Below, one piece after another: positions 10,501 through 37,849 of a stretch of 47,508 bases of DNA; the first letter of the stretch is position 1; each line of letters starts with the position of its first letter. This DNA comes from Candidatus Microgenomatus sp. (GTDB taxonomy: Bacteria > Patescibacteriota > Microgenomatia > UBA8517), in the NCBI GenBank assembly GCA_020724585.1, contig DYGS01000001.1:625027-672534 (forward strand), read 5' to 3'. The translations under genes were made by a program, and so were the position numbers. The notes beneath the pieces were generated by a model that did no database searches, was not told where the DNA came from, and saw nothing but the letters and a program-made list of their open reading frames with translations.

Positions 10501-12205
10501 TAGTATTAGTCCTAGTGTTTCCGCAAGTCCATCTCTTTCACCATCTGTTAGTATTTCACCTTCGGTGTCAGTCAGTCCATCTGTTTCCGCAAGTCCATCA
10601 CTAAGTCCATCGATATCAGCCAGCCCATCATTATCACCATCCGTCTCCATTTCACCAAGTGTATCCGTCTCTCCATCAGTATCAGAATCGCCATCAATAT
10701 CACCAAGTGCCAGTCAATCACCATCTGTTTCACCAAGTGTATCTATATCTCCATCTGTATCTATTTCACCATCAGTTTCTATCAGCCCTTCAGTTTCAGA
10801 ATCTCCATCTATTTCCCCTTCAGTTTCAGCAAGCCCATCTGTATCGCCTTCTGTTTCCGTCAGTCCATCGGTGTCTGTAAGTCCAAGCGTTTCGCCATCT
10901 GTTTCAGTATCCCCATCCGTCAGCCCGTCGGTATCGGTTTCTCCAAGTGCATCTGTCTCCCCATCCGTATCTATTTCACCATCTGTTAGCCCGTCAGTAT
11001 CAGCATCGCCTTCCGTTTCTCCCTCAGTTTCCATATCTCCAAGTGCTTCAGTTAGTCCATCAGTATCAGTTTCACCTTCAATAAGTGCCTCTCCTTCTGT
11101 TAGCCCTTCGGTTTCTGCAAGTCCATCTGTTAGCCCGTCCGTGTCAGTTTCACCATCCGTATCAGAATCACCATCTGTTTCTCCAAGTGTGTCAGTCAGT
11201 CCATCTGTATCTCCTTCTGTTTCAATATCACCAAGCGTAAGTATCAGCCCTTCGGTTAGTCCAAGTGTTAGTGTCAGTCCTTCTGTTTCACCAAGTGTTT
11301 CAATAAGTCCCAGTGCTTCTGTTTCCCCATCAATATCCCCTTCTATATCAACTAGTCCTAGTTTAAGCCCTTCTGTATCAATCTCTCCCTCATCCTCCGT
11401 TTCACCAAGCGAAGTTATCTCACCAAGCGTAAGCGTCTCACCATCAGTTTCGCCTTCGGTTTCAATCTCTCCATCAACTTCACCAAGTGTTTCAATTTCA
11501 CCATCTGTCTCACCATCTGTTTCAATCTCTCCTTCTGCATCCATATCTCCATCGGTTTCCGTAAGCCCGTCTGTGTCGATTAGCCCATCAGTCTCCCCAT
11601 CAGTCTCTGTCTCACCATCTGTTTCAATCTCTCCTTCTGCGTCTATTTCGCCTTCCCAGTCTGTATCCCCCAGTGTTTCAGAAAGTCCTTCTGTTTCACC
11701 GTCAGTTTCTGTTTCCCCTTCTGCTTCTACATCCCCATCTCCGTCACCATCTGAATCGCCATCACAATCACCTTCCATTAGTCCTTCTCAATCGGAATCA
11801 TCATCAGCTTCTCCATCCATTCCGGGTATATCAAGCTCGCCGTCTGCATCAATCTCACCATCTTCTAGCCCCTCAGGTTCTATTTCCCCATCTGTTTCAC
11901 CATCGGGAATAATATATTCGGCAAGTGCCAGCGTTAGTGCATCTAAATCACCATCCATAAGTCCTTCATTATCACCGTCAACTCCGCCGATTCCTATTCT
12001 AATCAGAGAATCAGCTATATTTAACAGGGAATCAACAGCGGGTCAAGGATCAACAGTATCGGGACTGCAAAATATTCCTGCCTGGAATACAGTCGGTAGG
12101 CCAAAAACTGCAAGAGTCGGGACCATCGGATTTAATATTCAAACAAGATCGCTTGAATTTTTTAGTGGTAAAAAGTGGTTCAGATTGCCGATGAGTAGAA
12201 TTTAA
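7565..12205 (+). CDS. giant Ser-Pro-Val hexapeptide-repeat protein (1546 aa), probable surface fibre / glycosylation scaffold
   Basis: Single uninterrupted ORF: globular module (aa 1-211), SPSVSx tract (212-269), second globular module (270-488), 984-aa SPSVSx tract (489-1472), 74-aa C-terminal module. No signal peptide or TM helix seen. Confidence 0.8.
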   Translation: MAISLVGSTSLTATSTATNPSLTFSLNGTEDMVVAFGTGLNAPTDITFNGSTMALAISQNNGINTGGVALFYLLPPNIPGSGDYTVQGTWASSDQNAMLGVVGYAGTKGQAPVDSNSTFITGNTNTTTFTLPLTTSTANSWVIGLAYANGTASTLLNITLGNIRENREATTSETMFSDREISAAESTGVVWTFSSQTAALTFAGMVIEPAISSVSPSVSASPSLSPSVSVSPSVSISPSVSASPSVSPSVSESPSVSPSISASPSISPSEPPPNTPINRSTNSGVQGTNATSHTVNLPATVTSGDLLLVWMSFDGTPVVTWDNTTHGTWTQFVDTNNGSNTLTIYGKVATGSEAGGTLTITTDASEQSVHRSASIYQWQGSIAGGVNYPAATSGTDTNPDSPIATDSWGTTGRRTISIVSIDGTATVSSYPAGYSQNQFFDQSGGGAGCGLGSAAYNDIVGSQNPSSYTIDISSAWIGATISIKGGGGSSTSPSVSVSPSASASPSVSPSVSVSPSVSESPSVSPSVSVSPSVSESPSVSPSVSASPSVSPSASVSPSVSVSPSVSVSPSVSISPSVSPSVSASPSVSPSVSVSPSASVSPSVSVSPSVSVSPSVSESPSISPSVSASPSVSPSVSISPSASVSPSVSVSPSVSASPSVSPSVSASPSVSPSVSVSPSVSVSPSVSESPSVSPSVSESPSVSPSVSVSPSASVSPSVSVSPSVSVSPSVSASPSVSPSVSESPSVSPSVSVSPSVSVSPSVSESPSVSPSVSASPSVSPSVSVSPSASISPSISVSPSVSVSPSVSVSPSVSESPSVSPSISLSPSISPSISVSPSASVSPSVSASPSVSPSVSASPSVSPSVSVSPSVSISPSVSVSPSASVSPSVSVSPSVSVSPSVSESPSVSPSVSASPSVSPSVSVSPSVSVSPSVSESPSVSPSVSASPSISPSVSVSPSASISPSVSVSPSVSISPSVSASPSISPSVSASPSLSPSVSISPSVSVSPSVSASPSLSPSISASPSLSPSVSISPSVSVSPSVSESPSISPSASQSPSVSPSVSISPSVSISPSVSISPSVSESPSISPSVSASPSVSPSVSVSPSVSVSPSVSPSVSVSPSVSPSVSVSPSASVSPSVSISPSVSPSVSASPSVSPSVSISPSASVSPSVSVSPSISASPSVSPSVSASPSVSPSVSVSPSVSESPSVSPSVSVSPSVSPSVSISPSVSISPSVSPSVSVSPSVSPSVSISPSASVSPSISPSISTSPSLSPSVSISPSSSVSPSEVISPSVSVSPSVSPSVSISPSTSPSVSISPSVSPSVSISPSASISPSVSVSPSVSISPSVSPSVSVSPSVSISPSASISPSQSVSPSVSESPSVSPSVSVSPSASTSPSPSPSESPSQSPSISPSQSESSSASPSIPGISSSPSASISPSSSPSGSISPSVSPSGIIYSASASVSASKSPSISPSLSPSTPPIPILIRESAIFNRESTAGQGSTVSGLQNIPAWNTVGRPKTARVGTIGFNIQTRSLEFFSGKKWFRLPMSRI
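8198..8371 (+). repeat. short (SPSVSx)n coding tract, 18-nt period
   Basis: Translates as SSVSPSVSASPSLSPSVSVSPSVSISPSVSASPSVSPSVSESPSVSPSISASPSISPS. Confidence 0.9.
9029..11980 (+). repeat. long (SPSVSx)n coding tract, ~2.95 kb, 18-nt period; x mostly V/A/E/I/P
   Basis: Read directly from the translation. The reverse strand yields (TDGETD)n-type shadow ORFs. Confidence 0.9.
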
Positions 12206-13825: not shown

Positions 13826-13841
13826 AGGGTGTAACCCTTAA
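13826..13841 (+). repeat. REP-like element, partial copy (AGGGTGTAACCCTTAA) just upstream of the RayT-like gene
   Basis: 16-nt match to the core of 1746..1764, in + orientation. Overlaps the listed ATG at 13841. Confidence 0.65.
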
Positions 13842-14548
13842 TGGTATTGTTAATCATGCCTGCAAAAAACATTGTCAAATTTTATCTCTCAAATGGTATC
13901 TATCATATATACAATCGAGGAGTCGAAAAAAGAATAATTTTTGGAGACGATCAAGATTATAAAGTTTTTTTAAATTATTTAAAAGAGTACTTATCGCCCA
14001 CTCCAGACAAAGAATCACTCAAAAAAGATATTACCTTTAAGGGTGTAACCTTTAAAGGTGTCGCTAAACAGATTTCTAACTACTCAGATCAAATTAGCCT
14101 TCTTGCATTCTGCTTAATGCCAAATCATGTTCATCTTTTAATTAAGCAGAAGGATAAAAATTCAATTAAGAAGTTTACACAATCGCTTTTTACTAGGTAT
14201 TCTATGTATTTTAATAAAAGATATGCAAGAACCGGTTCACTATTCCAAGGAACATACAAAGCAACTAATGTAATAAATAAAGATTATTTGCTAGATATAA
14301 CCCGTTATATTCACAGAAATCCGCTAAAAATTACTAAAAAATTATCTAAAGCCTACTCCTCATACTCCCATTATTTGAACTTATTTAAACTACCATGGCT
14401 TAAAAATGAAGAGGTGATCAATTATTTTAATGTAAGCACTTTTATAAAACATAACAAAATTGATAGTTATAAACATTTTGTTGAAAAATTTAAATATCAA
14501 AACGAAGAGTTAGATTTGGCAAACGACCATGAAGGGTTACACCCTTAA
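13841..14548 (+). CDS. IS200/IS605-type HUH Y1 transposase-like protein, REP-associated (RayT-like)
   Basis: YHIYNRGVEKRIIF, HUH motif in CLMPNHVHLLIKQ, GSLFQGTYKA, catalytic-Tyr region RYIHRNPL. The start may be the ATG at 13856 (MPAKNIV...). The last codons read into the downstream REP copy. Confidence 0.8.
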   Translation: MVLLIMPAKNIVKFYLSNGIYHIYNRGVEKRIIFGDDQDYKVFLNYLKEYLSPTPDKESLKKDITFKGVTFKGVAKQISNYSDQISLLAFCLMPNHVHLLIKQKDKNSIKKFTQSLFTRYSMYFNKRYARTGSLFQGTYKATNVINKDYLLDITRYIHRNPLKITKKLSKAYSSYSHYLNLFKLPWLKNEEVINYFNVSTFIKHNKIDSYKHFVEKFKYQNEELDLANDHEGLHP

Positions 14549-15794: not shown

Positions 15795-16496
15795 TTATAT
15801 CACTAAATCAATTTGTCGATTGACCAAACCTTCAATTTCCAATAATAATTTAGCTTTCGCCCAGTCTTTTTGAGAATCTGTTAAAACTTCACCAAGGCCA
15901 TCTAGAATATTTTTAGGATCAATCTTTTTTACATTCTCAAGCAAAAATAAGTAAAAATCTTTTGGATTCCTACCTGTTCTTGCCTTAATAATTTCATAAT
16001 TTATATCACCTGCATACTCTGTACCTAAAAAATAATGAATATCAAACAAATCTCTATTTGCAAGTGTCGGTCTTTCAGTAAACGCCACCATTTTATGTGC
16101 AATGACATCTTTGATATCTAATACTTTTACATTTGTACCGTAAAAATTTTTAATATCATAATGATTTAGGCTCATGTCCCTAGTTGAAACTTCTATTTTT
16201 ATATTATGTTCTCCCTTTTGATAACTAACTAGCCAAAAAAGTGTATTGTGTTTAGTGCTTTGATCTTTTATTTCATATTTTCCACTAAGTAGATCTGTCA
16301 TTTTTTCAATTATAAGATTAATTTCATTGTTTCCGCCAATATAGTCAAAGTCCAAATCAACACTAAAACGAGGCAGGTTATAAAAAAGTAAGGCCGCAGT
16401 ACCACCCTTAAACCCTAAACTTTTTGAGAGTAAATCATCTTTGTAAATATCGATTAAGATATTTGTTAGATTTAGCTTGTGTTTTGTAATATCCAT
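15795..16496 (-). CDS. abiEii: AbiEii-type nucleotidyltransferase toxin (pair 2)
   Basis: LGFKGGTAALLFYNLPRFSVDLDFD and RDLFDIHYFL motifs. Overlaps its AbiEi partner. Confidence 0.85.
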   Translation of the reverse strand: MDITKHKLNLTNILIDIYKDDLLSKSLGFKGGTAALLFYNLPRFSVDLDFDYIGGNNEINLIIEKMTDLLSGKYEIKDQSTKHNTLFWLVSYQKGEHNIKIEVSTRDMSLNHYDIKNFYGTNVKVLDIKDVIAHKMVAFTERPTLANRDLFDIHYFLGTEYAGDINYEIIKARTGRNPKDFYLFLLENVKKIDPKNILDGLGEVLTDSQKDWAKAKLLLEIEGLVNRQIDLVI

Positions 16497-17047
16497 TTTG
16501 ATATATCTTTGTTGTTTGAATAAACTTGCTTATTTAATTTGTCTAATTTGTCAAAATTTACACCTCTTAAATTGTCAAAATATTCAGGGCCACCTAAATA
16601 AATCTTATCACAAATAGCCCTTTCAACACTTGCCTTATAAACTCCATCAACACTTTCAATTCCTAATGGGTTTAAAAGTATTTCATCTTTAATTTTTTTA
16701 TATATTATATTTTTTCCATTAATTAATTTAGTTTCAGACCTTTTAGAGATAACATAAATAGATTCATATGGCTGAAAAACAACACCCTTTTCGAATAAAA
16801 CCGTGTATAGACTAATATATGATGGTATTCGAAATTTATTAGCAAATTCTTGTATTGAATAACTTTTGTCTAGTGCATATAAACCCTTTGAAATCCGTAT
16901 TAAATCACCGTTTTTAACCAAGTATTTAAGTGCAGAATTTAATTTGTTACCAGAATATTTAGAGTTAACAGATAGAAGATCCCTCAAACTAAAAACTGTT
17001 TGACCAGATTTTGAAAATTGATATAGGTCTTTAATGAAGCTCATCAC
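16472..17047 (-). CDS. abiEi: AbiEi-like antitoxin (pair 2)
   Basis: 191 aa. LIRISKGLYAL, PSYISLYTVL and ERAICDKIYL resemble the other AbiEi-like genes. Starts GTG 17047 / ATG 17044. Confidence 0.75.
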   Translation of the reverse strand: MMSFIKDLYQFSKSGQTVFSLRDLLSVNSKYSGNKLNSALKYLVKNGDLIRISKGLYALDKSYSIQEFANKFRIPSYISLYTVLFEKGVVFQPYESIYVISKRSETKLINGKNIIYKKIKDEILLNPLGIESVDGVYKASVERAICDKIYLGGPEYFDNLRGVNFDKLDKLNKQVYSNNKDISKWILQNTS

Positions 17048-17132: not shown

Positions 17133-17723
17133 ATGAAAAGTATTACCTACAGTCTTTATTCACCAAAAAACACTGTTTTTACGGCTAGTGAAATTGCTAT
17201 CCTAATTGGTGAGACAAACATGGACAATTTAAAATCCAAAATAAATCGCCTTGTCAAAAACGGTACTTTAATAAGTTTGAGAAAAGGCTTATATGCTAAA
17301 GGTGATGATTTTAACATCCTTGAGGCTGCTAATAAAATTTTTACTCCATCCTACATTAGCCTTGAAACTGTTTTGCAAAAGAATGGTGTAACTTTTCAAG
17401 ATTATAGCCACACTATTTTTGTAATAAGTTATCAAACAAGAAGCGTCAAGCTTGGAGATTTTACAATTGAATTTAGAAAAGTTAAGAATGATATTTTAAA
17501 TAATCAAGCAGGAATAATAAATGAAAATGGCTATTCAATTGCCACAACCGAAAGAGCTTTTTTAGATAGAATTTATTTATCAGGAAATTATCATTTTGAC
17601 AACTTAGGGCAAATTGACTGGGAAAAAGCCGGAGAACTGGTTAAAATATATGGTAGTAAAATAATGGGAAGGAGGTTAAAAGAGTATGCTTCAGATTACC
17701 ACTCACAATTTGATAATGAATGA
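17133..17723 (+). CDS. abiEi: AbiEi-like antitoxin (pair 3)
   Basis: Listed ORF starts at 17034, but that extension contains the promoter. The ATG at 17133 gives MKSITYSLYS.... LISLRKGLYA, PSYISLETVL and ERAFLDRIYL motifs. Confidence 0.75.
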   Translation: MKSITYSLYSPKNTVFTASEIAILIGETNMDNLKSKINRLVKNGTLISLRKGLYAKGDDFNILEAANKIFTPSYISLETVLQKNGVTFQDYSHTIFVISYQTRSVKLGDFTIEFRKVKNDILNNQAGIINENGYSIATTERAFLDRIYLSGNYHFDNLGQIDWEKAGELVKIYGSKIMGRRLKEYASDYHSQFDNE

Positions 17724-18372
17724 GATTGTCAAAAAAATTTATAGCAATACAAAAATTGCTCCTCTACTTGGTTTTAAGGGTGGAACTGCACTTTATATGT
17801 TTTACAACCTTCCTAGATTTAGTGTGGATTTAGATTTTGACCTTCTTAATCAAAGCAAAAAAGATATTGTGTTTACTGAGGTTACCAAAATAGTCAGTAA
17901 ACTTGGAGTACTTACTGAGCATAAAGAAAAACATTTTAATCTTTATTGGTTATTAAGTTATAAAAAGGGAGAAAAACATTTAAAAGTTGAAATAACCAAA
18001 AGAAGCTTTGGAAGTAGCTACGAATTAAAAAATTCACTTGGAATCCCTGCCCTAGTTATGAAAAAGGAAGATATGTTTGCAAATAAATTAACAGCACTTT
18101 TAGAAAGAAGGAAACTTGCCAATAGAGATATATTTGATATTTGGTTTATGCTTAAAAATGGCTGGAGCATAAACGACGCCTTACTAAAAGAAAGAACAAA
18201 AATGGATGCAAAAAAATATTTAAAAAAATGTCTTAAACTTCTTGAAGAAAATCCACCCAAATACCCTTTAGAAAACTTGGGAGATCTTGTTGATAACAAG
18301 ACTAAGGATTTTATAAAAAGAGATTTGATAAAAGACACCATCTTCTACCTCAAAGCAAACTTTTTAAACTAA
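17686..18372 (+). CDS. abiEii: AbiEii-type nucleotidyltransferase toxin (pair 3)
   Basis: LGFKGGTALYMFYNLPRFSVDLDFD and RDIFDIWFML. An alternative ATG at 17716 would give an ATGA-type overlap with the antitoxin stop. Confidence 0.85.
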   Translation: MLQITTHNLIMNEIVKKIYSNTKIAPLLGFKGGTALYMFYNLPRFSVDLDFDLLNQSKKDIVFTEVTKIVSKLGVLTEHKEKHFNLYWLLSYKKGEKHLKVEITKRSFGSSYELKNSLGIPALVMKKEDMFANKLTALLERRKLANRDIFDIWFMLKNGWSINDALLKERTKMDAKKYLKKCLKLLEENPPKYPLENLGDLVDNKTKDFIKRDLIKDTIFYLKANFLN

Positions 18373-20664: not shown

Positions 20665-21240
20665 ATGCCAACTCTGAAGTTAATTAAATATTTAAAAGAC
20701 TTAGGTATTAAATTTTTAACTCCGGACATATTATCTTCAATTCTTCAAACAAACAACAGAAACAGTATCTACAAAACAGCTAATAGGCTTTTAAAGCATG
20801 GTCTTTTGCAAAAGATAGACAAGGGTAAGTTTATTTTAACAGAAGCAAATGTTGGTGATTTTGAGATAGCCAATTTTATAATTAGACCTTCTTATATTAG
20901 CCTTGAATCAGCCCTTTCTTTTTATGGCATTTTACCTCAGTTCCCCTATTCAATCACCTCAGTCACAACACTCAGACCAAGGTCGGTTGGAAAATATGAA
21001 TACTCAAGAATATCAAGCAATTTGTTTTGGGGTTACATCAAAAAGGACAACTTTTTAATTGCTACACCTGAAAAAGCACTACTTGATTATACATATCTAG
21101 CTTCTAAAAAGTTGAGAAATTTTGACACTTCTGAATGGGATTTATCAGCTGTAGATATTGACACTTTTAAATCTATCTGTAGTAAGATTAAATTTGCACC
21201 TTTTAGAAAACTTGTTAAAAAATTAAATATTTATGATTAA
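20665..21240 (+). CDS. abiEi: AbiEi-like antitoxin (pair 4)
   Basis: 191 aa. PSYISLESALSFYGIL and PEKALLDYTYL; closest to pair 1. Confidence 0.75.
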   Translation: MPTLKLIKYLKDLGIKFLTPDILSSILQTNNRNSIYKTANRLLKHGLLQKIDKGKFILTEANVGDFEIANFIIRPSYISLESALSFYGILPQFPYSITSVTTLRPRSVGKYEYSRISSNLFWGYIKKDNFLIATPEKALLDYTYLASKKLRNFDTSEWDLSAVDIDTFKSICSKIKFAPFRKLVKKLNIYD

Positions 21241-21982
21241 TTCTTTAGATTTACAAAAATTATCAACAAATTTAGGCATTGATGTCTATACAATACTTAG
21301 AGAATATGTTCAAATAACATTTTTAAATAGTTTATATTTCTATCCTAAAGCTAAAAACCTAGTTTTTAAAGGAGGAACAGCCTTAAGATTTTTTGCCAAC
21401 TCCCCTAGATTTTCAGAAGATTTAGACTTTACTTCTAGTTTAAGCCACAATGATATTGTTACCATAACAGATGAGGCAATAAAGGATTTAAAATCTGAAT
21501 TTAATGATATTGAGATTAAAAATATGAAATCAATATCAGGCCTGAGCCGAAAGATATATATAGATAATGATATTTCATCACAAAAACTAACAATCAAGCT
21601 TGATTTTTCAGAAAGAGAGAAAGTGATAAATTCAAAAATTGGGATAATCAGAACAAATTTGCCTATCATATCAACTACTCCAGTCACATTTCTTGATCTA
21701 AACGAGATCTTGGCAGAAAAAATAAGAGCAATAACTACTAGAAATAAAGGGCGTGACCTTTTTGACTTATGGTTTTTACTTCAAAACAACCATAAACTTG
21801 ATCTAAAACTAATTCAGACTAAATTAGATTATTATAATGAAAAATTTGATAGAGATAATCTTATTAAAACAATAAAAGACTGGGATGAAAAACAACTATC
21901 CAACGATCTTAATAAATTTCTACCAATTAAAGATAGAAAGATAATTCCAGAATTAAAAAGTCTATTGTTGAGTTTAATTTAA
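21233..21982 (+). CDS. abiEii: AbiEii-type nucleotidyltransferase toxin (pair 4)
   Basis: LVFKGGTALRFFANSPRFSEDLDFT and RDLFDLWFLL. 8-nt overlap with its antitoxin. Confidence 0.85.
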   Translation: MINSLDLQKLSTNLGIDVYTILREYVQITFLNSLYFYPKAKNLVFKGGTALRFFANSPRFSEDLDFTSSLSHNDIVTITDEAIKDLKSEFNDIEIKNMKSISGLSRKIYIDNDISSQKLTIKLDFSEREKVINSKIGIIRTNLPIISTTPVTFLDLNEILAEKIRAITTRNKGRDLFDLWFLLQNNHKLDLKLIQTKLDYYNEKFDRDNLIKTIKDWDEKQLSNDLNKFLPIKDRKIIPELKSLLLSLI

Positions 21983-25438: not shown

Positions 25439-25441
25439 AGT

Positions 25442-25513
25442 GTCCCCGGGAAGAATTGAACTCCCATCTAAGGATTAGGATTCCTCTGTTCTATCCGTTG
25501 AACTACGGGGACA
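25442..25513 (-). tRNA. tRNA-Arg (anticodon CCU), 72 nt, no encoded CCA
   Basis: Hand-folded cloverleaf on the minus strand. Acceptor GTCCCCG/CGGGGAC, D stem GTTC/GAAC, anticodon stem GAGGA/TCCTT with loop ATCCTAA, T stem GGGAG/CTTCC with loop TTCAATT. Confidence 0.85.
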
Positions 25514-25547
25514 TAAAGTATACTTTAGTGTATTATACAAGAAATAC

Positions 25548-25619
25548 GGAGAGTAGGTCATCGGTAGACCGCCGCGTTCGGGACGCGGAAGCAGAGGGTT
25601 CAATTCCCTCCTCTCCGAC
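25548..25619 (+). tRNA. tRNA-Pro (anticodon CGG), 72 nt, no encoded CCA
   Basis: Acceptor CGGAGAG/CTCTCCG, D stem GGTC/GACC, anticodon stem CCGCG/CGCGG with loop TTCGGGA (G37), T stem GAGGG/CCCTC with loop TTCAATT. Confidence 0.85.
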
Positions 25620-25667
25620 AGCAGTAAGTAACCAGTTTTTCAAACTGTCAACTCCCATTCCGACAAA

Positions 25668-26426
25668 TTAAATCAAATTTCTTAAATAAAGAAGTGTGTC
25701 TTGTTTTAATGTTTTTCTAATTTTACTAAATTTTTCTGGTGGTAAAAGTGTACTTAAATCTTGATTAATATCATCTTCAGTTACATTTTTTTTTATAAAA
25801 GCAATTAGTTTTTTGATGTATTCTTTTGTTTCCAGTCCTGTTCTTTCTTTTATTATTTCTTCCCTAAATCCATACCCTTTTAAGAAAAAATAGTTGACAT
25901 CGTATAAATCTCTACCTGCAACTTTCTTGTGTCTATTATATCTATCCATTATACCAACAAGCTTATTTGCATACATTGATTCAATTGTTTGACATGTCAA
26001 AAATCTATCAATTTCTGTTATTTTAACTTTTTCATATTCATTTTCTTCCACCACTTCATCAAAAACACTAATCATTAATGTATTTCTATCATTTGGCGCA
26101 GCCTCGTATTTAAGTGTAAAAAATAGCGAACTATCATTCTCTCTACCAACTCTGTTGGCCAAGCTTTGCTTATCTATTTTAAAATCCAACTTTTCAAAAA
26201 CTTGTTTTAGATTTGTTCTGATGTCTAAAAAATCAGTCTCATCAAGTTTTTTATACGGATCAAAATCCAAATCTACTGAAAACCTATCCAAATGGCCAAG
26301 CATGGCGGCACATGTTCCTCCTTTAAAATAAATTTTATGGGATAAAACAGGATTATCCGCAATCTCAACCAAAAGCTTTTGCATTTGGCTTCTATGAACT
26401 ATGTTTTGTTTGCTTAAATCTGTCAT
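25668..26426 (-). CDS. abiEii: AbiEii-type nucleotidyltransferase toxin (pair 5)
   Basis: IYFKGGTCAAMLGHLDRFSVDLDFD and RDLYDVNYFF. 4-nt overlap with its antitoxin. Confidence 0.85.
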   Translation of the reverse strand: MTDLSKQNIVHRSQMQKLLVEIADNPVLSHKIYFKGGTCAAMLGHLDRFSVDLDFDPYKKLDETDFLDIRTNLKQVFEKLDFKIDKQSLANRVGRENDSSLFFTLKYEAAPNDRNTLMISVFDEVVEENEYEKVKITEIDRFLTCQTIESMYANKLVGIMDRYNRHKKVAGRDLYDVNYFFLKGYGFREEIIKERTGLETKEYIKKLIAFIKKNVTEDDINQDLSTLLPPEKFSKIRKTLKQDTLLYLRNLI

Positions 26427-29916: not shown

Positions 29917-32214
29917 TTACATCCTTTCAGGGGCTTCTATTCCAAGAAGTTTGAGGCCGGATTTTAATACTATTCCCGTCTTTTGAGTCAACATAAGTCT
30001 AAAAGACCCATCACTCGTATCTTCCAACCCTACTATCCTGTGTTTAGCATAAAAAGTGTTAAATTTACTGGCTAAATCATATAAATAATTGCAAATTAAA
30101 TTGGGAGAGAAATTTTCAGCCGCGTTTTTTACAACCTCGCTAAAGATAAACAGCTTGCGAAGTATAGCAATCTCTTCCTCCTTTAAAGCTAGACCTTGAA
30201 AGCTTATATCTTGCAGGCTGAGACCTTTCAAGTTGGCCTTATTAACAACACTGTTTATTCTGGCAATCGTATATTGGATATAAACTGATGAATTACCATC
30301 CATTGCAAACATCTTGTCCCAATCAAAGTTAATATTTGTAGATGGATGGTGAGAAAGATCAAAGTATTTTATAGCCCCGATCCCGACCTGCCTCGCCGTA
30401 GACTTATCACTCTTATCTTCGTTTCCCAGTTTCCTTGCCCTTTCAATCGCCTCATTTAATACTTCTTCAAGTTTTACTGTTTTTCCCGCCCTTGTTGACA
30501 TTTTTTTACCATCCATCAAAAATAGTCCATGTCCCACATGCACCCTTTGTCCGTCTTTATACCAACCCAGCATTTTTTCAATTTCAAAAATTTGTTTGAA
30601 ATAGAGACTCTGTTCACTTCCAACTTCATTAATAATTAAATCCGGATTATATTTTTCCTTTCTATACTTATCTGTTGCCAAGTCCCTTGTTGAATAAAGC
30701 GTTGTTCCATCTTTTTTAAGTATCATTAGAGGGCTTAAGTTAGTATCTTTATCAAAAAAGACTAGTTTTGCCCCATCCTCCCCTACTTTTAAAAGTTTTC
30801 TTTCTTCAAGCTCTTTAATAACAATCGCCATTTTGCTTTCAAAAAATGATTCGCCCAACCCCCTACCACTATTAAAATCTCTATCAAATTTGATATTTAA
30901 AAGTTTGTAAATTTTGTCAAACTCCCTGAAACTTATCTCTACACACTTTTCCCATACCCACTTTGCTTCGTCATCGCCATCCTCCAACTTTTTAAACCAA
31001 TCCCTAGCTTTTTGTTTCATATTAAGATTTTCTTGAGCTTTTTTATGAAACTCGACATATAGTATTAGCAGATCCTCAACAGACCAATTTGGCATTTGTA
31101 ATTTGTAATTTGGAATTTCGGTGATTTGCGAGAGCAAAGCACCAAACTGTGTTCCCCAATCTCCTAAATGATTATCTCGCATTACTTTATAACCAACTGC
31201 TTCCATTAAGTTTGCGATACTATCCCCTATTACCGTTGATCTTAAATGCCCCACACCAAAAGGCTTGGCTATATTAGGACTGCTATATTCAACTATGGCA
31301 AGTTTGCCTTTATTTTTATTTGATTTACCATAGTTTTCATCTATAGTAATTAAATTATCACTTAAGACCTCATCTTTTAATTTAAAATTTACAAATCCCT
31401 CAACAGCATTAGCCTTAACAAGTAATTTTTCATTAAAATTATTAAATTTTTCAGCAATTTCTTTAGCAAGCTCAACTGGATTTCTTTTTATTTCATAATT
31501 GAGGCTGAAGTCTTGACTTTTTGCCTCCAATTTGTTATAAAATAGTTGGCTTTCTTGTAGACCGGAGAATGACGCGCCGGCGGCCCGCAAGGGTGATTGT
31601 AGGGAAGGGATGCGGTACTTCCCAAGAAGACCATTTTTTAGTCTTTTCGGATTTACAAAAAACATAGTAACTATCTCATTTCCGTCTTTTCCTTCTAAAA
31701 TCTCTATTACAATTACTCCAAAGTTTCCATTATTAAAAGCAAATAAATTTCTTTTGTCATTATTTTTATCTTCATAAACATCAATTGGATAAAAAGTAAT
31801 ATACGGAATTTGCCATAAAACATTTGGTAAAACTTCATTATGGCCTACTCTATGCCCCAACCAACCACATATCTTCGCATAGACAAAACCATTCAAATAA
31901 ACCATATCGGATTTGGCGTTAATTATTTTGACAATCTCAGAATTTAATCTTCCTACAGGTAAACTAAATTTATTATCCTTCCAAGACTTCTTGTTTATAT
32001 TTTTACTAATCCATTCAATATTTTCCAAAAAATTCCCTTTTTCGTTTGCCATTTGCAATGCAACATTACTTGAATAGTCTCCAAAGGCCTCGTTTGATGC
32101 AAACTCTACTTGAGGATTTTTAACACCAGCTACACTCTCTAAAACTTTTGCTATTTGCTGTTTAATATCTTGCACTATACAAATGATTATATCTAGCGCA
32201 AAACAAAATGTCAC
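29917..32214 (-). CDS. argS: arginine--tRNA ligase with ~183-aa insertion in the N-terminal domain
   Basis: SSPNIAKPFGVGHLRSTVIGD (HIGH region), MSTRAGK (KMSKS-like), and a C-terminal anticodon-binding domain ending in M. The likely true start is the GTG at 32175 (MQDIKQQI...), since a TATAAT-like box lies in the listed 5' extension. Confidence 0.9.
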   Translation of the reverse strand: MTFCFALDIIICIVQDIKQQIAKVLESVAGVKNPQVEFASNEAFGDYSSNVALQMANEKGNFLENIEWISKNINKKSWKDNKFSLPVGRLNSEIVKIINAKSDMVYLNGFVYAKICGWLGHRVGHNEVLPNVLWQIPYITFYPIDVYEDKNNDKRNLFAFNNGNFGVIVIEILEGKDGNEIVTMFFVNPKRLKNGLLGKYRIPSLQSPLRAAGASFSGLQESQLFYNKLEAKSQDFSLNYEIKRNPVELAKEIAEKFNNFNEKLLVKANAVEGFVNFKLKDEVLSDNLITIDENYGKSNKNKGKLAIVEYSSPNIAKPFGVGHLRSTVIGDSIANLMEAVGYKVMRDNHLGDWGTQFGALLSQITEIPNYKLQMPNWSVEDLLILYVEFHKKAQENLNMKQKARDWFKKLEDGDDEAKWVWEKCVEISFREFDKIYKLLNIKFDRDFNSGRGLGESFFESKMAIVIKELEERKLLKVGEDGAKLVFFDKDTNLSPLMILKKDGTTLYSTRDLATDKYRKEKYNPDLIINEVGSEQSLYFKQIFEIEKMLGWYKDGQRVHVGHGLFLMDGKKMSTRAGKTVKLEEVLNEAIERARKLGNEDKSDKSTARQVGIGAIKYFDLSHHPSTNINFDWDKMFAMDGNSSVYIQYTIARINSVVNKANLKGLSLQDISFQGLALKEEEIAILRKLFIFSEVVKNAAENFSPNLICNYLYDLASKFNTFYAKHRIVGLEDTSDGSFRLMLTQKTGIVLKSGLKLLGIEAPERM
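31561..31625. repeat. GC-rich patch in frame inside argS (possible third member of the leuS insert family)
   Basis: ACCGGAGAATGACGCGCCGGCGGCCCGCAAGGGTGATTGTAGGGAAGGGATGCGGTACTTCCC encodes (minus strand) YRIPSLQSPLRAAGASFSG. Internal hairpin GGGAAG (31602..31607) / CTTCCC (31618..31623). Confidence 0.45.
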
Positions 32215-32929: not shown

Positions 32930-32970
32930 AAAACTGACTAGTGTCGCCACAAACTTCACTAGTCAGTTTT
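32930..32970. terminator. bidirectional hairpin between convergent genes
   Basis: Perfect 14-bp stem AAAACTGACTAGTG (32930..32943) / CACTAGTCAGTTTT (32957..32970) with a 13-nt loop. A/T runs on both sides. The right arm overlaps the last codons of 32959..33786. Confidence 0.7.
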
Positions 32971-33786
32971 AACTTTGTAAACAACATCTCCCATTTGGTC
33001 TGTCCTTAAAATTTTTACCTTTTTAGCATTTAGCATTTGTATAATTTCTTTATGTGGGTGGCCGTAGCGATTATTTTTCCCGGCACTTATTACAGCAATT
33101 TCAGGCATCAGTTTATTTAGTAGTTTTTCTGATAATCCATTCTTAGAACCATGATGAGGTATTTTGATATAGTTAACCTGTCCTATTTTTTTATTTTCGG
33201 ACAAATCATCGCTCACTCCTGTTTCGATATCTCCTGTAAAAATAGCCTTAAAATTCTGATATTTTAGATTGATAACTATCGAATAGTTGTTTGTTTTATT
33301 TGAACTGTAATCTTTATTTGGATGAACTATATCTAAATATATCATCCCCACCCTAATATTGGGCAGATCATAAGGGTATATGATCACTGCCCCACTACCC
33401 CCTACCACGTTTTCTAGCACTCTAGTATAATCACTGCTAAAGACTTCCTTTTTAAAATCGTTGGTCAAAATATTTTTAACATTATAACTTTTAAAAACAT
33501 CCGCAAGTCCCCCGCTGTGATCTTTATCAGTATGTGTCAAAATAAAAAGTTCCAAATCCCTATCCCAAAACGGCATATATTTTCCAAGGCAATCCAAGAC
33601 CTGTCTGTCCGGTCCGCTGTCAATTAAAATTTGTGTAGTATTTTTAGAAAGTAAAATTACATCCCCTTGCCCCACATCGCAAGCAATTATTGACAAGTTA
33701 TTACTTACACTAAAAACAGCTAGCCAAATCGAAATAGCTACAAGTGTTAAAAAAATAAAAAGTGAGGACCTGCTATTTAAATTCAT
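32959..33786 (-). CDS. comEC: ComEC C-terminal metallo-beta-lactamase-fold domain as a separate ORF with its own N-terminal anchor
   Basis: 275 aa. CDVGQGDVILL, LTHTDKDHSGG, IPHHGS, and NRYGHPH. ATGA overlap with the upstream competence-domain ORF. Confidence 0.85.
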   Translation of the reverse strand: MNLNSRSSLFIFLTLVAISIWLAVFSVSNNLSIIACDVGQGDVILLSKNTTQILIDSGPDRQVLDCLGKYMPFWDRDLELFILTHTDKDHSGGLADVFKSYNVKNILTNDFKKEVFSSDYTRVLENVVGGSGAVIIYPYDLPNIRVGMIYLDIVHPNKDYSSNKTNNYSIVINLKYQNFKAIFTGDIETGVSDDLSENKKIGQVNYIKIPHHGSKNGLSEKLLNKLMPEIAVISAGKNNRYGHPHKEIIQMLNAKKVKILRTDQMGDVVYKVKTD

Positions 33787-34855
33787 CTTAAAATAGTAAC
33801 TATTTTTGTAAAATAAAATAACATTGGAAATATTACAAACAATATCAATCTACCTACTAATGGTACAATTATTCCTGCAATTCCTGCAATCATCCCTAAA
33901 CTCATAATATAGGGAACTGTCCAAAGTACTAAAGCATTTGTAATTGGAGATAAAATATTAAACTGACCAAAAGTAGCATAAATGATTGGTGCTACTCCAA
34001 CTTGGGCCGCTAAAGAGGTTGTCAGACCCTCTCTAAATAGACTTGGAATTCTACTTAAATAACTATCAATTTTCTTTTGGAAAAGCATTAATGAAGTAGT
34101 GGCGGTAAAAGATAATATAAAGCCTAAATCGGTTATCCAAACTGGTTTAACAAGAAGCATTATTATAGTAGTATACAGTAAGATACTCCAAGATATAGTC
34201 ACCCTGCCAGTTAATTGACCAAACATTACTATTATTCCCATTATTGCAGCCCTAACAATAGGCGCATCAAATCCCGAAAGAATAACATAAACGATTATTC
34301 CCGCAATACTCATGAAAACCGCATACCTGCGTTTAAAATATTGTGTTAGAATGCCAATTAGAAAAGAAGCTAACATGGTCACATTTGTGCCTGATGCTAC
34401 AACTACATGTGCAGTACCGGTATCGCGAAGCAGCTTCCAAAAACTTTCAGGCATTTGTTTTGATCCAATCGTAATTCCTGCAACAAGCGATGAATATGGT
34501 TCAGGAAGCGATGATTTGTAAAAAGATATTATTCTTTCTCTAATTTTAAATAAGAAGTTTTTATTTTCTGTATCTAATAATTTGTAATTTAGAATTTGTA
34601 ATTTAGAATTTGTAATTTAGAATTGGAAATTACTCCTGTAATTTCTACCCTATCTCCATAACTTATTTCAGGATATCTCGGCAAGTAAATTTTGAGTCCG
34701 TAAATTTTGAAATATTGTTTATCTCCAAAAACTATTGGCTCTGTTAATACTTGAGTCGTAATTCTTATCGTGTCCCCGTCCCTAAAACTTGGAAGTGATA
34801 AGTAATAGCGAATAGTTATTAGAAGAATTATTAATAACAAAAATACATACCTCAT
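33783..34855 (-). pseudogene. comEC: ComEC N-terminal (OB/DUF4131-like) plus competence channel domain, interrupted by a frameshift inside a 14-nt tandem repeat
   Basis: ORF 34589..34855 stops inside the repeat. The frame of ORF 33783..34454 (TGTAHVVVASGTNV, multi-TM) is open up to 34616. Removing one 14-nt unit fuses them into a 352-aa ORF (hand check). Confidence 0.75.
34579..34620. repeat. perfect 3-copy tandem repeat of 14-nt unit AATTTGTAATTTAG (two heptamers)
   Basis: Read directly: 34579..34592, 34593..34606 and 34607..34620 are identical. A degenerate fourth unit AATTGGAAATT follows. Confidence 0.95.
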
Positions 34856-34860
34856 GATTC

Positions 34861-35496
34861 TTAATACGAAATATTACTTTTTATTTTGTCATAAGTTTTT
34901 TGGGGAATAATTTTTTTAGAAACCAATTCTTCTAAAGATGAGTAAGGTCTTTGTTCAATGATCTTTTGGGCGTAAACAGGGCCAATTCCGTTTAGTGATT
35001 CTAGTTCTTTTTGACTTGCAGTATTAATATTTACCAAACCACTACCACTCACTCCTAAAATCGCTTGATCTATTTTGTTATACTCACTTTTTTTAGCAGT
35101 CTCAACTTCTGACTGCGAAGGAATATATAATTTTTGTCCATCTGCAAGTTTTGCTGCTCTATTTATATTTTTACCCACCCATTCCCTATCAGCACTGGCA
35201 TTTATTCCTCCAGCAGAAATTAAAAGATCGTCAATTCTATCCCCTACTTTTAACTTATAAACTCCCGGTTTTTCAACAGCTCCTGCAATTTCAACTGTGA
35301 TATTCTCATCTTTTAATTCTTCATTTTTATTTATTATTTCTATTTGATTCTGACTTTCAAACAAACCGCTTTTGAATAAAAACACACCAAATCCTATTAA
35401 AATCAAGCCCAAAAGAAGAAAGATCAGAAGTTTTTGATTAGACGACGAAGTTAACAAGTCTGCCAGGAATAAATACCTCTTTTTTGATTCTTCCAC
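34861..35496 (-). CDS. comEA: ComEA-type DNA receptor (SLBB plus helix-hairpin-helix)
   Basis: N-terminal TM helix. VNINTASQKELESLNGIGPVYAQKIIEQRPYSSLEEL HhH motif. The listed GTG start overlaps leuS by 59 nt, so the start is uncertain. Confidence 0.85.
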   Translation of the reverse strand: MEESKKRYLFLADLLTSSSNQKLLIFLLLGLILIGFGVFLFKSGLFESQNQIEIINKNEELKDENITVEIAGAVEKPGVYKLKVGDRIDDLLISAGGINASADREWVGKNINRAAKLADGQKLYIPSQSEVETAKKSEYNKIDQAILGVSGSGLVNINTASQKELESLNGIGPVYAQKIIEQRPYSSLEELVSKKIIPQKTYDKIKSNISY

Positions 35497-37849
35497 TTAC
35501 TAACCATTTTGCTACTTTTTCGTCTTGTTTTGCAAGTTGTATTATTTTATTTTTATTTTTCGATTCTTCATTTTTAACTATTAATTGGCTTCTTAGTTTT
35601 CCATTTATCTGTACTACTATTTCTACCTGCTCTGCATGTAAATACTTTTCATCATATGTTGGCCAGGTTGATGTGTGAACTGAACCTTTTTGTTTTAAAA
35701 TTTCTCTCCAAACTTCCTCTGAAAGGTGTGGTGTAAAGGGGGCCAGTAGTTGTGCCAGCACAACTAAGTACTTTGTACTTAGTACTTCGTATTTAGCAAG
35801 CTCGTTAACAAATTCCATTATCTTAGCTATGGCTGTGTTATATTTAAACAATTTGATATCCTCAGTCACACCTTTTATTGTTTTATTTAAAATAAAACGA
35901 AGATCGGCGGAAGCCGAACGACTGGTCTGCGAAGCAACCCGAAGGAGTGAGGACCCGCTGATCGAGTTTTGGGTAAACAATTTATATACTCTTTTCAAAA
36001 ATCTACTCATTCCCTCAATTCCACTATCTCTAAAATCTGGATAGCCATCCATTTGACCTAAAAACATGACATATAACCTCAGTGTATCTGCTCCATATTT
36101 TTCAATGTAGATATCAGGGTTAACTACATTACCCCTACTTTTACTCATTTTGGCACCATCTTTAATCATCAAACCATGAGCAAAGAACTTTGGAAATGGC
36201 TCTTCATGGTCAATTAATCCTAAATCATACATAACCATGTTTACAAATCTGGCATACATTAAATGTAAAACTGCATGTTCAGCCCCACCAAAATATAAAT
36301 CGACGGGTAACCAGTTTTTATTAATATCGTTATCCCATGGCAGGCGAGAGATACCAGCAGCCTCGCGACTGGCTGACGCATTCTTCGAACGCGGCCCTCC
36401 AAGGAGCGTGGAACTGGTATCCGAGCCGACACTCGGATAACGTAAAAAGTACCAACTACTGTCGACGAATGTGTCCATAACATCAGTTTCTCTTCTTGCT
36501 TCTCCATTACAATTAGGGCACTTAACTTTCCAAAATTCTTCATGATTAGCTAGTGGTCCTCTACCATTTCCTTCTGGCTTAAAATCTTTAATATCAGGCA
36601 AGGTTACTGGTAAATCTTTTTCAGGAACACTAACCCAACCGCATTTATCACAATCGATCATTGGAATTGGAGCTCCCCAATATCTCTGGCGACTAACAAG
36701 CCAATCACGCAAATGATAATTTGTGTGTTTAACACCCCACTTTTTCTTTGGAATTTCATCCCAAAGCTTGTCATTTAGACTATTACTTAATATATCTAAA
36801 GAATACTTTTTAGCAAACTCCATATCATGTTCATCATATGCAGGTACTCCCATTACAAAACCAGTTCCATAATTTTTCTCTACATAATTTGTTTCCCAAA
36901 TTGGAAGTTCTCTACCATCAACAGGAGATATTGCATATTTACCTGTAAACTTACCCAGCTTCTCTTTTGATTTTTCTGGTTTCTCCAATTCATCAGAAAA
37001 TGTTGCAATGAATGTTACTGACTCTAAAGTATCAGGCCTTGTTGTAAAAACTGTAATTATTTCATCTGAATCTTTAATTTTAAAGTCAATTTTCATTCCC
37101 TCAGACTTTCCAATCCACTCTCTTTGTGCCGTTACTACTCTTTGACTCCAGTTAATAGTATCAAGTCCATTAAGTAGTCTGTCTGCATAGTCTGTGATTT
37201 TGAAAAACCATTGGTCTAAATTTTTCCTTTCTACAACCGTTCCGCACCGTTCGCAAACTCTTAAATCTTCATTATTAACTATTAATTCCCCATTCGCAGA
37301 ACGGGGTTCTTTACCTGCTTGTTTTGGTGTCATTACTTGCTCATCTGCAAGAACTGTTTTACAACTAGGGCAAAAGTTAACTTCTGCAGTCTTTCGGTAG
37401 GCCAAACCTTTCTCCCACATTTTTAAAAATAGCCACTGTGTCCATTTGTAATAATCTTCACTTGAGGTTGTAACTGTTCTTGTCCAATCATATCCATGAC
37501 CTAGACTTCTCATTTGTTCCTCGTAGTGTTTTGTTGTTCTTTTAACTACTTCTTTTGGATTTTCATTTATTTTGATTGCATAGTTTTCAGAATGTATTCC
37601 GAATGAATCATAGCCAATTGGCTGAAATACAGTTTTACCATTCATCCTCATAAATCTTCCAATAACATCACTTCCAGTTGAAGCAAATGCATGGCCGGCA
37701 TGTAGACCTTCAGCGCTGGGGTATGGAAACATCCACAAGTTGTAGAATTTATCTTTTTTCTTTAAATTTTTGATATCAGGAGAATACAATTTCTCCTTTT
37801 CCCACACCTTTTGCCATTTTGCCTCTATTTTTTTGTGATTATATTCCAT
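35438..37849 (-). CDS. leuS: leucine--tRNA ligase
   Basis: 803 aa. PYPSAEGLHAGH (HIGH), CP1 editing domain with Zn-type CxxC pairs, DTFVDSSWYFLRY, KMSKSRGN. Confidence 0.95.
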   Translation of the reverse strand: MEYNHKKIEAKWQKVWEKEKLYSPDIKNLKKKDKFYNLWMFPYPSAEGLHAGHAFASTGSDVIGRFMRMNGKTVFQPIGYDSFGIHSENYAIKINENPKEVVKRTTKHYEEQMRSLGHGYDWTRTVTTSSEDYYKWTQWLFLKMWEKGLAYRKTAEVNFCPSCKTVLADEQVMTPKQAGKEPRSANGELIVNNEDLRVCERCGTVVERKNLDQWFFKITDYADRLLNGLDTINWSQRVVTAQREWIGKSEGMKIDFKIKDSDEIITVFTTRPDTLESVTFIATFSDELEKPEKSKEKLGKFTGKYAISPVDGRELPIWETNYVEKNYGTGFVMGVPAYDEHDMEFAKKYSLDILSNSLNDKLWDEIPKKKWGVKHTNYHLRDWLVSRQRYWGAPIPMIDCDKCGWVSVPEKDLPVTLPDIKDFKPEGNGRGPLANHEEFWKVKCPNCNGEARRETDVMDTFVDSSWYFLRYPSVGSDTSSTLLGGPRSKNASASREAAGISRLPWDNDINKNWLPVDLYFGGAEHAVLHLMYARFVNMVMYDLGLIDHEEPFPKFFAHGLMIKDGAKMSKSRGNVVNPDIYIEKYGADTLRLYVMFLGQMDGYPDFRDSGIEGMSRFLKRVYKLFTQNSISGSSLLRVASQTSRSASADLRFILNKTIKGVTEDIKLFKYNTAIAKIMEFVNELAKYEVLSTKYLVVLAQLLAPFTPHLSEEVWREILKQKGSVHTSTWPTYDEKYLHAEQVEIVVQINGKLRSQLIVKNEESKNKNKIIQLAKQDEKVAKWLVSGRIKKEVFIPGRLVNFVV
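35902..35963. repeat. GC-rich palindromic in-frame insert B in leuS
   Basis: Terminal inverted repeat GATCGGCGG (35902..35910) / CCGCTGATC (35955..35963, one G-T pair). Encodes SGSSLLRVASQTSRSASADL. Shares CGACTGG and CCxAAGGAGxG blocks with insert A. Confidence 0.6.
36350..36440. repeat. GC-rich palindromic in-frame insert A in leuS
   Basis: GATACCAG (36350..36357) / CTGGTATC (36414..36421), plus the adjacent hairpin TATCCGAG (36418..36425) / CTCGGATA (36432..36439). Encodes SDTSSTLLGGPRSKNASASREAAGIS between the conserved WYFLRY and NWLPVD blocks. Confidence 0.6.

Follow-up and report, generated by a model that had tools for sequence, protein, structure and literature searches.

Small GC-Rich Hairpin Elements in Frame in leuS of a Patescibacterial Genome: Probable Copies of a Non-Autonomous Selfish DNA Element

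Introduction

How do GC-rich palindromes come to lie, in frame, within an essential gene of an AT-rich bacterial genome? The question is raised by leuS, the gene for leucyl-tRNA synthetase (LeuRS), in a 47,508-nucleotide stretch of DNA from Candidatus Microgenomatus sp. (assembly GCA_020724585.1, contig DYGS01000001.1, positions 625,027 to 672,534 of the forward strand; hereafter the window, in whose own numbering coordinates are given). An initial reading of this sequence (the original prediction) held that leuS carries two related GC-rich palindromic inserts, A and B, that behave like the Rickettsia palindromic elements (RPEs), and that a third copy might lie in argS. The explanation we favor, and consider moderately probable, is that each of the two leuS patches is a copy of a selfish DNA element, small (about 65-85 nt), hairpin-forming and non-autonomous, that is analogous to RPEs, to intragenic repetitive extragenic palindromic sequences (REPs) and to miniature transposable elements with inverted repeats (MITEs).

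In-frame palindromic selfish DNA has so far been regarded as peculiar to Rickettsia and a few other genomes. The families RPE-1 to RPE-10 (Ogata et al. 2000, 2002; also in Wolbachia) are summarized in PMC10969869 and PMC2229807. Intragenic REPs have been described as well, some of them in frame and encoding 20-30 residues (Di Nocera et al. 2013, PMC3733652), and different REPs occupy about the same site in recB of two Xanthomonas species (PMC3733652). Our literature searches found no description of such elements in the candidate phyla radiation (CPR)/Patescibacteria.

Results and Discussion

leuS and Its Two GC-Rich Patches

The LeuRS encoded in the window has the Pfam domains tRNA-synt_1, tRNA-synt_1_2 and Anticodon_1, matches the LeuRS of T. 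thermophilus (1h3n) with E=4e-173, and has its best relatives (60-82% identity) in assemblies of Candidatus Woesebacteria/Microgenomates. Its gene is on the G-rich strand in a region with monotonic GC skew. Against a mean GC content of 35.6% for the window, a 50-nt scan flagged both of the patches that had first drawn attention to leuS, at 35896-35973 and 36326-36443 (59% GC each). The gene and the elements, the latter as delimited by the covariance model R1 described below, are as follows.

35438..37849, minus strand: leuS, bacterial-type leucyl-tRNA synthetase, 803 aa, host of both elements (open reading frame (ORF) and translation).
36344..36427, minus strand: insert A, family-1 hairpin element; peptide GSDTSSTLLGGPRSKNASASREAAGISR, LeuRS residues ~475-502.
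35897..35968, minus strand: insert B, family-1 hairpin element; peptide NSISGSSLLRVASQTSRSASADLR, LeuRS residues ~628-651.

We aligned 120 LeuRS orthologs from Woesebacteria/Microgenomates, most of them about 758-780 aa long with a base length of ~760 aa, and obtained DNA for twelve insert-bearing leuS genes (L numbers below denote loci, and P numbers proteins, from outside the window). Gains in length were found to cluster at a few hot spots. At site A, from WYFLRY to LPVD, empty alleles have 28-31 residues and filled alleles 50-57, with 52 in the window, in agreement with the early impression that this linker is unusually long; the T. thermophilus enzyme has 2 residues opposite 26 of the window protein at site A. 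At site B the window protein has 10 residues more than close orthologs, and none of the 120 orthologs was seen to carry a family-1 copy there. The closest ortholog without inserts (P0002/L004, 80% identical) has neither A nor B, and another (P0001/L001, 82% identical) has A and lacks B. On the basis of this alignment, both patches are lineage-specific insertions relative to close orthologs, as had been proposed.

An AlphaFold2 model of the window LeuRS (mean predicted local distance difference test score, pLDDT, of 80) places residues 477-500 and 628-642 in coil with pLDDT <50, between confident helices. The model thus predicts that both inserts form disordered surface loops compatible with the LeuRS fold.

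Inserts A and B as Members of One Structured Family

A direct local alignment of insert A with insert B scored no better than dinucleotide shuffles (z=0.08; z=0.1 in a repeat). From the window alone the claim that they are related would fail, and their relatedness is carried solely by other copies. Alignments of A and of B with the argS patch likewise gave no signal against shuffles; for A and B, such a comparison had too little power, and the matter was settled later by a family model. This model, R1, was built from eight copies, none of them from the window. When run on the 47.5-kb window it found A with 52.8 bits (E=8e-13) and B with 39.8 bits (E=5e-9), and the next match had E=0.8. Pairwise similarities also connect the two inserts transitively: the nearest relative of insert B is the site-A copy of L091 (z=19), insert A resembles the copy in L095 (z=19), and insert B resembles that same copy (z=6.7). 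A run of 21 bases is identical between insert B and the L091 site-A copy, in a match that includes the outer stem. Judged from these comparisons, inserts A and B belong to one structured family, which we call family 1. The relatedness originally proposed is thus upheld through the other copies and not by comparison of the two inserts themselves. The structural parts of the two inserts are listed here.

36414..36421, minus strand: insert A outer stem, 5' arm (GATACCAG, coding strand); exact 8-bp inverted repeat.
36350..36357, minus strand: insert A outer stem, 3' arm (CTGGTATC, coding strand); exact 8-bp inverted repeat.
36395..36406, minus strand: insert A conserved core block 1 (CTCCTTGGAGGG); (nearly) invariant columns 22-33 of the 11-copy alignment.
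36366..36375, minus strand: insert A conserved core block 2 (CAGCCAGTCG); invariant columns 56-61 of the 11-copy alignment.
36418..36439 (arms 36418-36425 / 36432-36439), minus strand: competing local hairpin TATCCGAG-6 nt-CTCGGATA; exact 8-bp inverted repeat.
35902..35963, minus strand: insert B outer stem GATCAGCGG / CCGCCGATC (coding strand), 8/9 paired with one A.C mismatch (sequence and fold).
35938..35947, minus strand: insert B conserved core block 1 (CTCCTTCGGG; sequence and alignment).
35919..35929, minus strand: insert B conserved core block 2 (CAGACCAGTCG; sequence and alignment).

The arms of insert A and the neighboring hairpin, both pointed out in the original prediction, are exact inverted repeats. 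The hairpin is made of host codons (YPSVGSD), overlaps the 5' arm of insert A, and is restricted to the allele type of the window, L001 and L008. The arms reported for insert B, GATCGGCGG (35902-35910) and CCGCTGATC (35955-35963), are 8/9 complementary when read directly from the sequence. Folding gave a divided outcome. Insert A with its flanks forms one long hairpin (RNA minimum free energy -54.6 kcal/mol, z=-3.9). For insert B alone the fold is weak when the coding strand is taken (z=-0.35 to -0.44), and the opposite strand gives better values (z=-2.0 and -2.85 in two runs).

The family-1 alignment holds eleven sequences, namely ten distinct copies and the near-identical copy of L008. Its core reads TCCnnnCTCCTT[C/G]G[A/G]GG, a variable apical hairpin, and CAG[C/A]CAGTCG, that is, CTCCTT[C/G]G[A/G]GG ... 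CAG[C/A]CAGTCG. The ordered blocks first noticed in A and B (CxCxCTCCTTxGxG and CAGxCAGTCGxxxGGCTxC) are present and are the most conserved columns of the wider family. All copies have a yTCk tag (CTCG in most) at the 5' foot of the hairpin. Elements are about 65-85 nt in size and encode peptides of 21-28 residues. Outer stems of 8-12 bp occur in every copy, with differing sequences and with pairing kept, as in the compensated change between insert A (GATACCAG/CTGGTATC) and the L095 copy (GAAACCAG/CTGGTTT). Every copy folds as a rod. In a plain MAFFT alignment, 74.7% of the cells of this rod are paired, vs 63% in shuffles (reached by 0/500), and 16/25 pairs have changed on both sides (2/500 shuffles); the covariation score is 0.361, vs 0.192 for shuffled and 0.05-0.25 for slid controls. 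For the copies of L095 and L091, a cloverleaf-like fold with a three-way junction was predicted; because other copies do not conserve its helices, we retained the rod. We also considered whether the host sequence had contained the 5' arm of the outer stem beforehand, and dropped this idea, since whole elements, stems included, are common to different sites and genes.

Searches for a known class of sequence gave little. Rfam 15 had no match to the elements at the gathering threshold, nor any beyond noise at E<=10; it found only two tRNAs in the window, and the best local match had 16.9 bits vs a gathering score of 42. Inteins and mini-inteins are above about 130 aa in size, and they were rejected as candidates because the inserts, of 21-28 residues, are without splicing motifs (N-terminal Cys/Ser; C-terminal His-Asn followed by Cys/Ser/Thr). 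A peptide-profile approach was abandoned, as held-out copies scored only 11-21 bits. A protein search with the concatenated insert peptides gave no match at E<=10; this was uninformative, because it missed known positives that, by a local phmmer run, should have scored E=1e-4 to 1e-6.

Copies in Other Genes and the Reading Frame

A strict scan of 241 million metagenome records for the core pattern returned 17 loci, 11 of which were chance matches in GC-rich contigs. The other six were real and represent four distinct insertions. Two of these loci, L096 and L098, have the element at site A of leuS. L092 and L103 have two identical copies in an 839-aa GT39/PMT mannosyltransferase (Pfam PF02366 and PF13231, found on the identical protein P0121); its orthologs P0129 and P0131 have related peptides in the same linker, and other GT39 orthologs are empty. 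In L095 the element is a loop insertion of ~37 residues in a metallo-beta-lactamase (MBL)-fold protein, which is an ortholog (43-53% identity) of the window ORF at 32959-33786. That ORF is the MBL gene of a conserved cluster (leuS-comEA-comEC-MBL ... argS, also present in the related loci L004, L006, L089, L090 and L229) and is 2-3 kb from leuS. Empty orthologs exist for both leuS sites and for the GT39 and MBL-fold hosts.

All ten distinct copies that we analyzed (10/10) are translated, lie in sense orientation and have a total length that keeps the host frame. The usual peptide is (S)LLRG..ASRS. In L098, CAGCCAGTCG is read as SQPV and not as ASR, because a shorter apical hairpin shifts the 3' half into another frame, and this argues that it is the nucleic acid, not the peptide, that is conserved. 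A second forward frame is open in 9/10 copies. Selection for a harmless hydrophilic peptide probably accounts for the constancy of the frame.

The family looks to be low in copy number and concentrated in and near leuS. The window has two copies, both in leuS, and nhmmer searches of 1.45 Mb of related loci with profiles of family 1 and of family 2 (described below) found leuS copies only. Among the 80 loci listed from a loose pattern scan of viral contigs there were chance matches only, with none at E<=0.1, and a blastn search of phage records with insert A gave no match.

Spread of Insert A between leuS Alleles

Near-identical copies of insert A occur in L001, L008 and L096, and the distribution of informative sites around them delimits a tract of exchanged DNA.

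36233..36461, minus strand: recombination tract carrying insert A, gene nt 1389-1617 (informative sites and third-codon-position identity).

The tract comprises insert A with ~35 nt upstream and ~120 nt downstream (about 230 nt with the flanks). The leuS gene of L001 resembles that of L004 on both sides of it and, at 121 informative sites in succession across gene nt 1389-1617, that of the window. Similarly, the third-codon-position identity of the window and L008 is 0.85-1.0 over residues 457-505 vs 0.52 for the whole gene. The mosaic in L001 and the local identity with L008 together indicate that insert A has been exchanged between diverged leuS alleles via homologous recombination, as read from the aligned genes. 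With filled and empty alleles at 80-85% identity, this gene is a tractable test case for the movement of hairpins and for the tolerance of essential enzymes to insertions.

An element-less allele at site A, that of L017 (WYYLRYPSVNVNSNFELPW), retains TCGAATTTCGAG...CTTCCG (peptide SNFE-LPW). This remnant matches the 3' end of the L003/L089-type element (RSNFEISRLPW) and looks like the deletion footprint of a past copy.

Other Hairpin Families in the Same Loops

Among the 120 orthologs, recurring types of insert peptide were found, each at both LeuRS sites and in different genomes. The LLRG..ASRS type is at site A in the window, P0001, P0005, P0012, P0017, P0022, P0023, P0025, P0046 and P0089, and at site B in the window. 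The LSTAKAGSSEPITKD type is at site A in P0006, P0011 and P0032 and at site B in P0020 and P0046, and the SSTF..PAKA..KKSAS type is at site A in P0026 and at site B in P0064, P0074 and P0120. In the DNA of the twelve genes, each peptide type corresponds to one DNA family. Thus at least three families (LLRG..ASRS, LSTAKAGSSEPITKD and SSTF..PAKA..KKSAS) have reached the same two LeuRS loops, and for one of them a gene of the same cluster holds a close relative.

Family 2 (CTTTCTACTGCCAAGGCCGGC...GCCTATTACGAAAGAT; peptide LSTAKAGSSEPITKD) was seen at site A in L006 (11409-11494) and at site B in L003 (3354-3431) and L007 (2543-2626). Family 3 (CTCCACTTTT...AAAGAGTGCGTCT; peptide SSTF..PAKA..KKSAS) was seen at site B in L229 (11930) and at site A in L230 (3293). 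The SSTF-type inserts of L229 and L230 had been tried as members of family 1 and were rejected by the covariance model; they form a separate, similarly built family.

Tiny GC-rich hairpins (~20-40 nt, up to 83% GC) are also inserted in frame and recur in unrelated proteins (L009:10111, L013:14843, L003:4271 and L090:10965; proteins P0047, P0199, P0210 and P0219). The peptide (P/S)xQGGPASG occurs in LeuRS and GT39, and LPAGGQ / LPAGEA in GT39, the MBL protein and ComEA. In L090, a 17-bp near-perfect hairpin is at LeuRS site B. A third hot spot of LeuRS, at about position 403 (window numbering), is within the zinc-binding CxxC region (L008:11116, L229:11216). The repeats there, (S/A)LKG..(T/S)LQG in 8/120 orthologs, are not GC-rich and are apparently another kind of insert.

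A Possible Route of Movement

If family 1 is a selfish element, its jumps to new sites would be rare and short-range; short-range movement is suggested by the closeness of the sites (A to B, 450 nt; the MBL gene at 2-3 kb). Such jumps would require the hairpin, which a transposase acting in trans would probably handle as single-stranded DNA, and the most plausible kind of enzyme would be an HUH/Y1 transposase of the IS200/RAYT type. The constant orientation of the copies relative to their host genes would follow from the strand-specific, single-stranded-DNA mechanism of such enzymes. Selection would then leave only in-frame copies in tolerant loops, where the element would most likely be neutral or slightly deleterious to LeuRS. 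Once inserted, insert A spreads between leuS alleles through recombination.

The window encodes a RAYT-like Y1 transposase of 235 aa at 13841-14548 (Pfam Y1_Tnp, 50 bits vs a cut-off of 23; HVH motif and YIHRNP), 22 kb from the leuS elements. The gene and its flanking palindromes (13826-14548) form a REPtron-like arrangement in a CPR genome. The flanking palindrome, AGGGTGTAACCCTT, has further copies at 1749-1762 (intergenic), at 14040-14053 within the transposase gene (one mismatch) and at 3813-3826 in the ORF at 3707-4453 (two mismatches), and its pattern has 14 matches with <=3 mismatches vs 3.3 expected. An insertion sequence with family-1 ends, which could be a parent of the family, was noticed neither in the window nor in related loci, although no dedicated search was made, and the covariance model gave no extra matches.

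Weighing the Explanations

Several of our observations count against a selfish, mobile origin of family 1. Genomes usually hold far larger numbers of RPEs and REPs, and the strict scan of 241 million metagenome records gave only six real loci; no further copy was found by R1 in 589 kb, or by a second model, R2, in 442 kb, of related loci. No clear or consistent target-site duplication was found at the element ends, where only some of the copies have CTCG on both sides, and the hypervariability of the host loops blurs the insertion boundaries. The folding energy has no strand preference, with the sense strand better in 3 independent lineages and the antisense strand in 5. The stems are kept by compensatory change, with copies in orthologs that are only 65-70% identical, and this would also fit a host function or a targeted process. 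The presence of three families, each at both LeuRS loops, would likewise fit either. The RAYT-like transposase has no direct link to family 1: on either side of its gene are inverted copies of another palindrome, AGGGTGTAACCCTT, and the protein scores below the NCBIfam REP_Tyr_transpos cut-off (44 vs 80 bits).

One alternative is that the inserts are a module selected by the host and kept for a benefit to LeuRS or its expression; the S/R/K-rich loops might help to bind tRNA, or the mRNA hairpin might regulate the translation or stability of leuS as a site for an RNase or for LeuRS. This would accord with the recurrence of at least three sequence families at the same two loops in different lineages, with the maintenance of stems by compensatory change, and with the strong over-representation of leuS among known copies. 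It would also accord with elements that are 90-95% identical in genes whose third codon positions are ~45-50% identical, but that high identity reaches flanking synonymous sites, which points to recombination rather than to selection on structure. Moreover, most orthologs, including the closest (80% identity), are without any insert, the peptide is not conserved (L098 reads another frame), the inserts are predicted to be disordered, and the mRNA strand is not consistently the better folder. The element is also found in a membrane glycosyltransferase and an MBL-fold protein. We regard a host-selected module as unlikely. Still less probable, in our judgment, is an RNA gene or RNA-level mobile element (an antisense small RNA, a ribozyme or a retro-mobile RNA) embedded in the coding sequence. 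A conserved internal-loop core and co-varying stems are typical of functional RNAs, and the antisense strand is better folded in 7/10 copies (z -2.2 to -4.2), yet the asymmetry of G.U type is inconsistent between lineages, Rfam provided no match at the gathering threshold or, beyond noise, at E<=10, and the total length of the element always preserves the host frame, a constraint that would not apply to an RNA that is excised or independent. Nor was any sign of a promoter or terminator seen, although none was looked for.

We consider it very improbable that no mobile element is involved, and that the patches are GC-rich low-complexity linkers, or hairpins formed de novo by template switching in hypervariable loops, with a likeness that is compositional. 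The loops are indeed hypervariable in length and sequence, these genes have many unrelated short GC-rich hairpins, and A and B could not be aligned directly better than shuffles. This account is contradicted by an independent covariance model that found exactly A and B, by the same 20-40-nt core in four unrelated insertion contexts in several organisms, and by the 21 consecutive bases, outer stem included, that insert B shares with the L091 site-A copy. A broader possibility, to which we give some credence while thinking it rather unlikely, is that in the Woesebacteria group of Patescibacteria several small GC-rich structured families colonize coding sequence by a targeted or very local mechanism, or that the host makes use of leuS hairpins. 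A targeted or local mechanism would imply hairpin-guided, strand-specific, short-range insertion, possibly by a RAYT-like Y1 transposase, and if either were true, this would be a natural system in which loops encoded by essential genes of ultra-small bacteria take up in-frame insertions. The non-autonomous selfish hairpin element remains the explanation that we prefer.

Comparison with Known Elements

As a selfish element, family 1 is most readily compared with the RPEs. Both are palindromic long stem-loops, translated in frame within conserved housekeeping genes of a small AT-rich genome and placed where the protein tolerates them; neither has a transposase of its own. The differences are considerable. 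No sequence relationship was found or expected (there was no direct run against RPE consensus sequences), and the host is non-rickettsial and Woesebacteria/Microgenomates-like, of the phylum Patescibacteria. Family 1 is about 65-85 nt long vs 105-150 bp for RPEs, and is sharply GC-rich against its host background. It conserves an internal-loop core while its stems co-vary, and its spread from allele to allele by recombination is documented. It is apparently low-copy and clustered in or near one gene, whereas RPEs have dozens of dispersed copies. Of the RPE-like behavior originally suggested, the in-frame palindromic repeats in an essential gene were therefore found; as to dispersal through the genome, no copy outside leuS was found in the window or in 442-589 kb of related loci.

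With REPs and REPINs, family 1 shares a GC-rich hairpin whose stem has a short conserved tag at its foot, and a RAYT-like gene is in the window. However, REPs are 20-40 bp long with GTAG or CGTC tags, mostly extragenic and high-copy, with stems nearly identical within a genome, whereas in family 1 the tag is yTCk, the stems vary and the rod is long and bulged, and the RAYT-like gene of the window is flanked by AGGGTGTAACCCTT and not by family 1. Family 1 belongs to neither the RPEs nor the REPs, as it has no sequence in common with them and differs in size, tag, stems, copy number and phylum. Bacterial MITEs (Correia, ERIC, RUP and BOX; PMC10969869, PMC2229807) are likewise short, non-autonomous long stem-loops with terminal inverted repeats and are occasionally fused in frame to ORFs; an in-frame intragenic location, the exception for MITEs, is apparently the rule for family 1.

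GC-rich palindromic mobile clusters in AT-rich compact genomes include the GC clusters of yeast mitochondria and the hairpin elements of fungal, sponge and placozoan mitochondria. Some yeast mitochondrial GC clusters are in frame in var1 and spread by gene conversion. Being organellar and unrelated in sequence, they are an analogy only.

If our explanation is correct, a family unrelated to those known, in CPR/Patescibacteria, would show that in-frame palindromic selfish DNA has originated independently in small AT-rich genomes. Part of the length variation and of the low-complexity, S/A/R/G-rich loops in CPR housekeeping proteins would thereby be explained. For annotation and phylogenomics, it would mean that inserts and recombination tracts make marker genes mosaic.

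The argS Patch

The GC-rich patch in argS, put forward as a possible third copy, is not a member of family 1. This is because it has no match to model R1 at E<=10, has no fold signal (z=-0.3), and encodes a conserved protein motif.

29917-32214, minus strand: argS, with the GC-rich patch at 31561-31625.
31468-32046, minus strand: ArgRS insertion domain, ~185-190 aa, absent from syntenic orthologs.

The patch aligns to AG(A/S)xFSxLQES, a motif that is conserved in all homologs of the insertion domain of the arginyl-tRNA synthetase (ArgRS), and it was rejected as a copy in favor of ordinary coding sequence for this motif. The ArgRS is 765 aa long here vs 549-585 aa in relatives (syntenic orthologs), because a domain of about 185-190 aa is inserted in its N-terminal domain. 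In 1.84 billion representative proteins that were searched, the insertion domain was found in other ArgRS at varying positions, as a protein of its own (196 aa) and within an Eco57I-like methylase, in which it overlaps a weak match to the PBECR3 nuclease. One of the ArgRS homologs also has an N-terminal B3_4 domain, and another carries the insertion domain after the DALR domain. The domain matches no Pfam family, and its AlphaFold2 model is of low confidence (pLDDT 50).

Other Features of the Window

The comEC gene (Competence) of the leuS cluster, at 33783-34873 on the minus strand, consists of two overlapping ORFs, 33786-34616 and 34592-34873, and relatives have 352-363 aa. The split represents a frameshift, a pseudogene or an assembly error. 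Five genes for AbiEii-family nucleotidyltransferase toxins (type IV toxin-antitoxin) are present in the 47.5 kb (2358-3086, 15795-16496, 17686-18372, 21233-21982 and 25668-26426), and an AbiEi antitoxin gene (16472-17047) adjoins at least one of them. A GC-rich patch at 25538-25628 is due to divergent genes for tRNA-Arg(CCT) and tRNA-Pro(CGG) at 25440-25619. At 7565-12205 there is a 1546-aa ORF that has no Pfam match. It includes, especially at 9300-11750, long arrays whose period is 18 nt (read as SPSVSV... in one plus-strand frame). The GC content of this region is 46-48% and its GC skew is strongly negative. The opposite strand also has long ORFs (8965-10650 and 10714-11778), and either strand may be the coding one.

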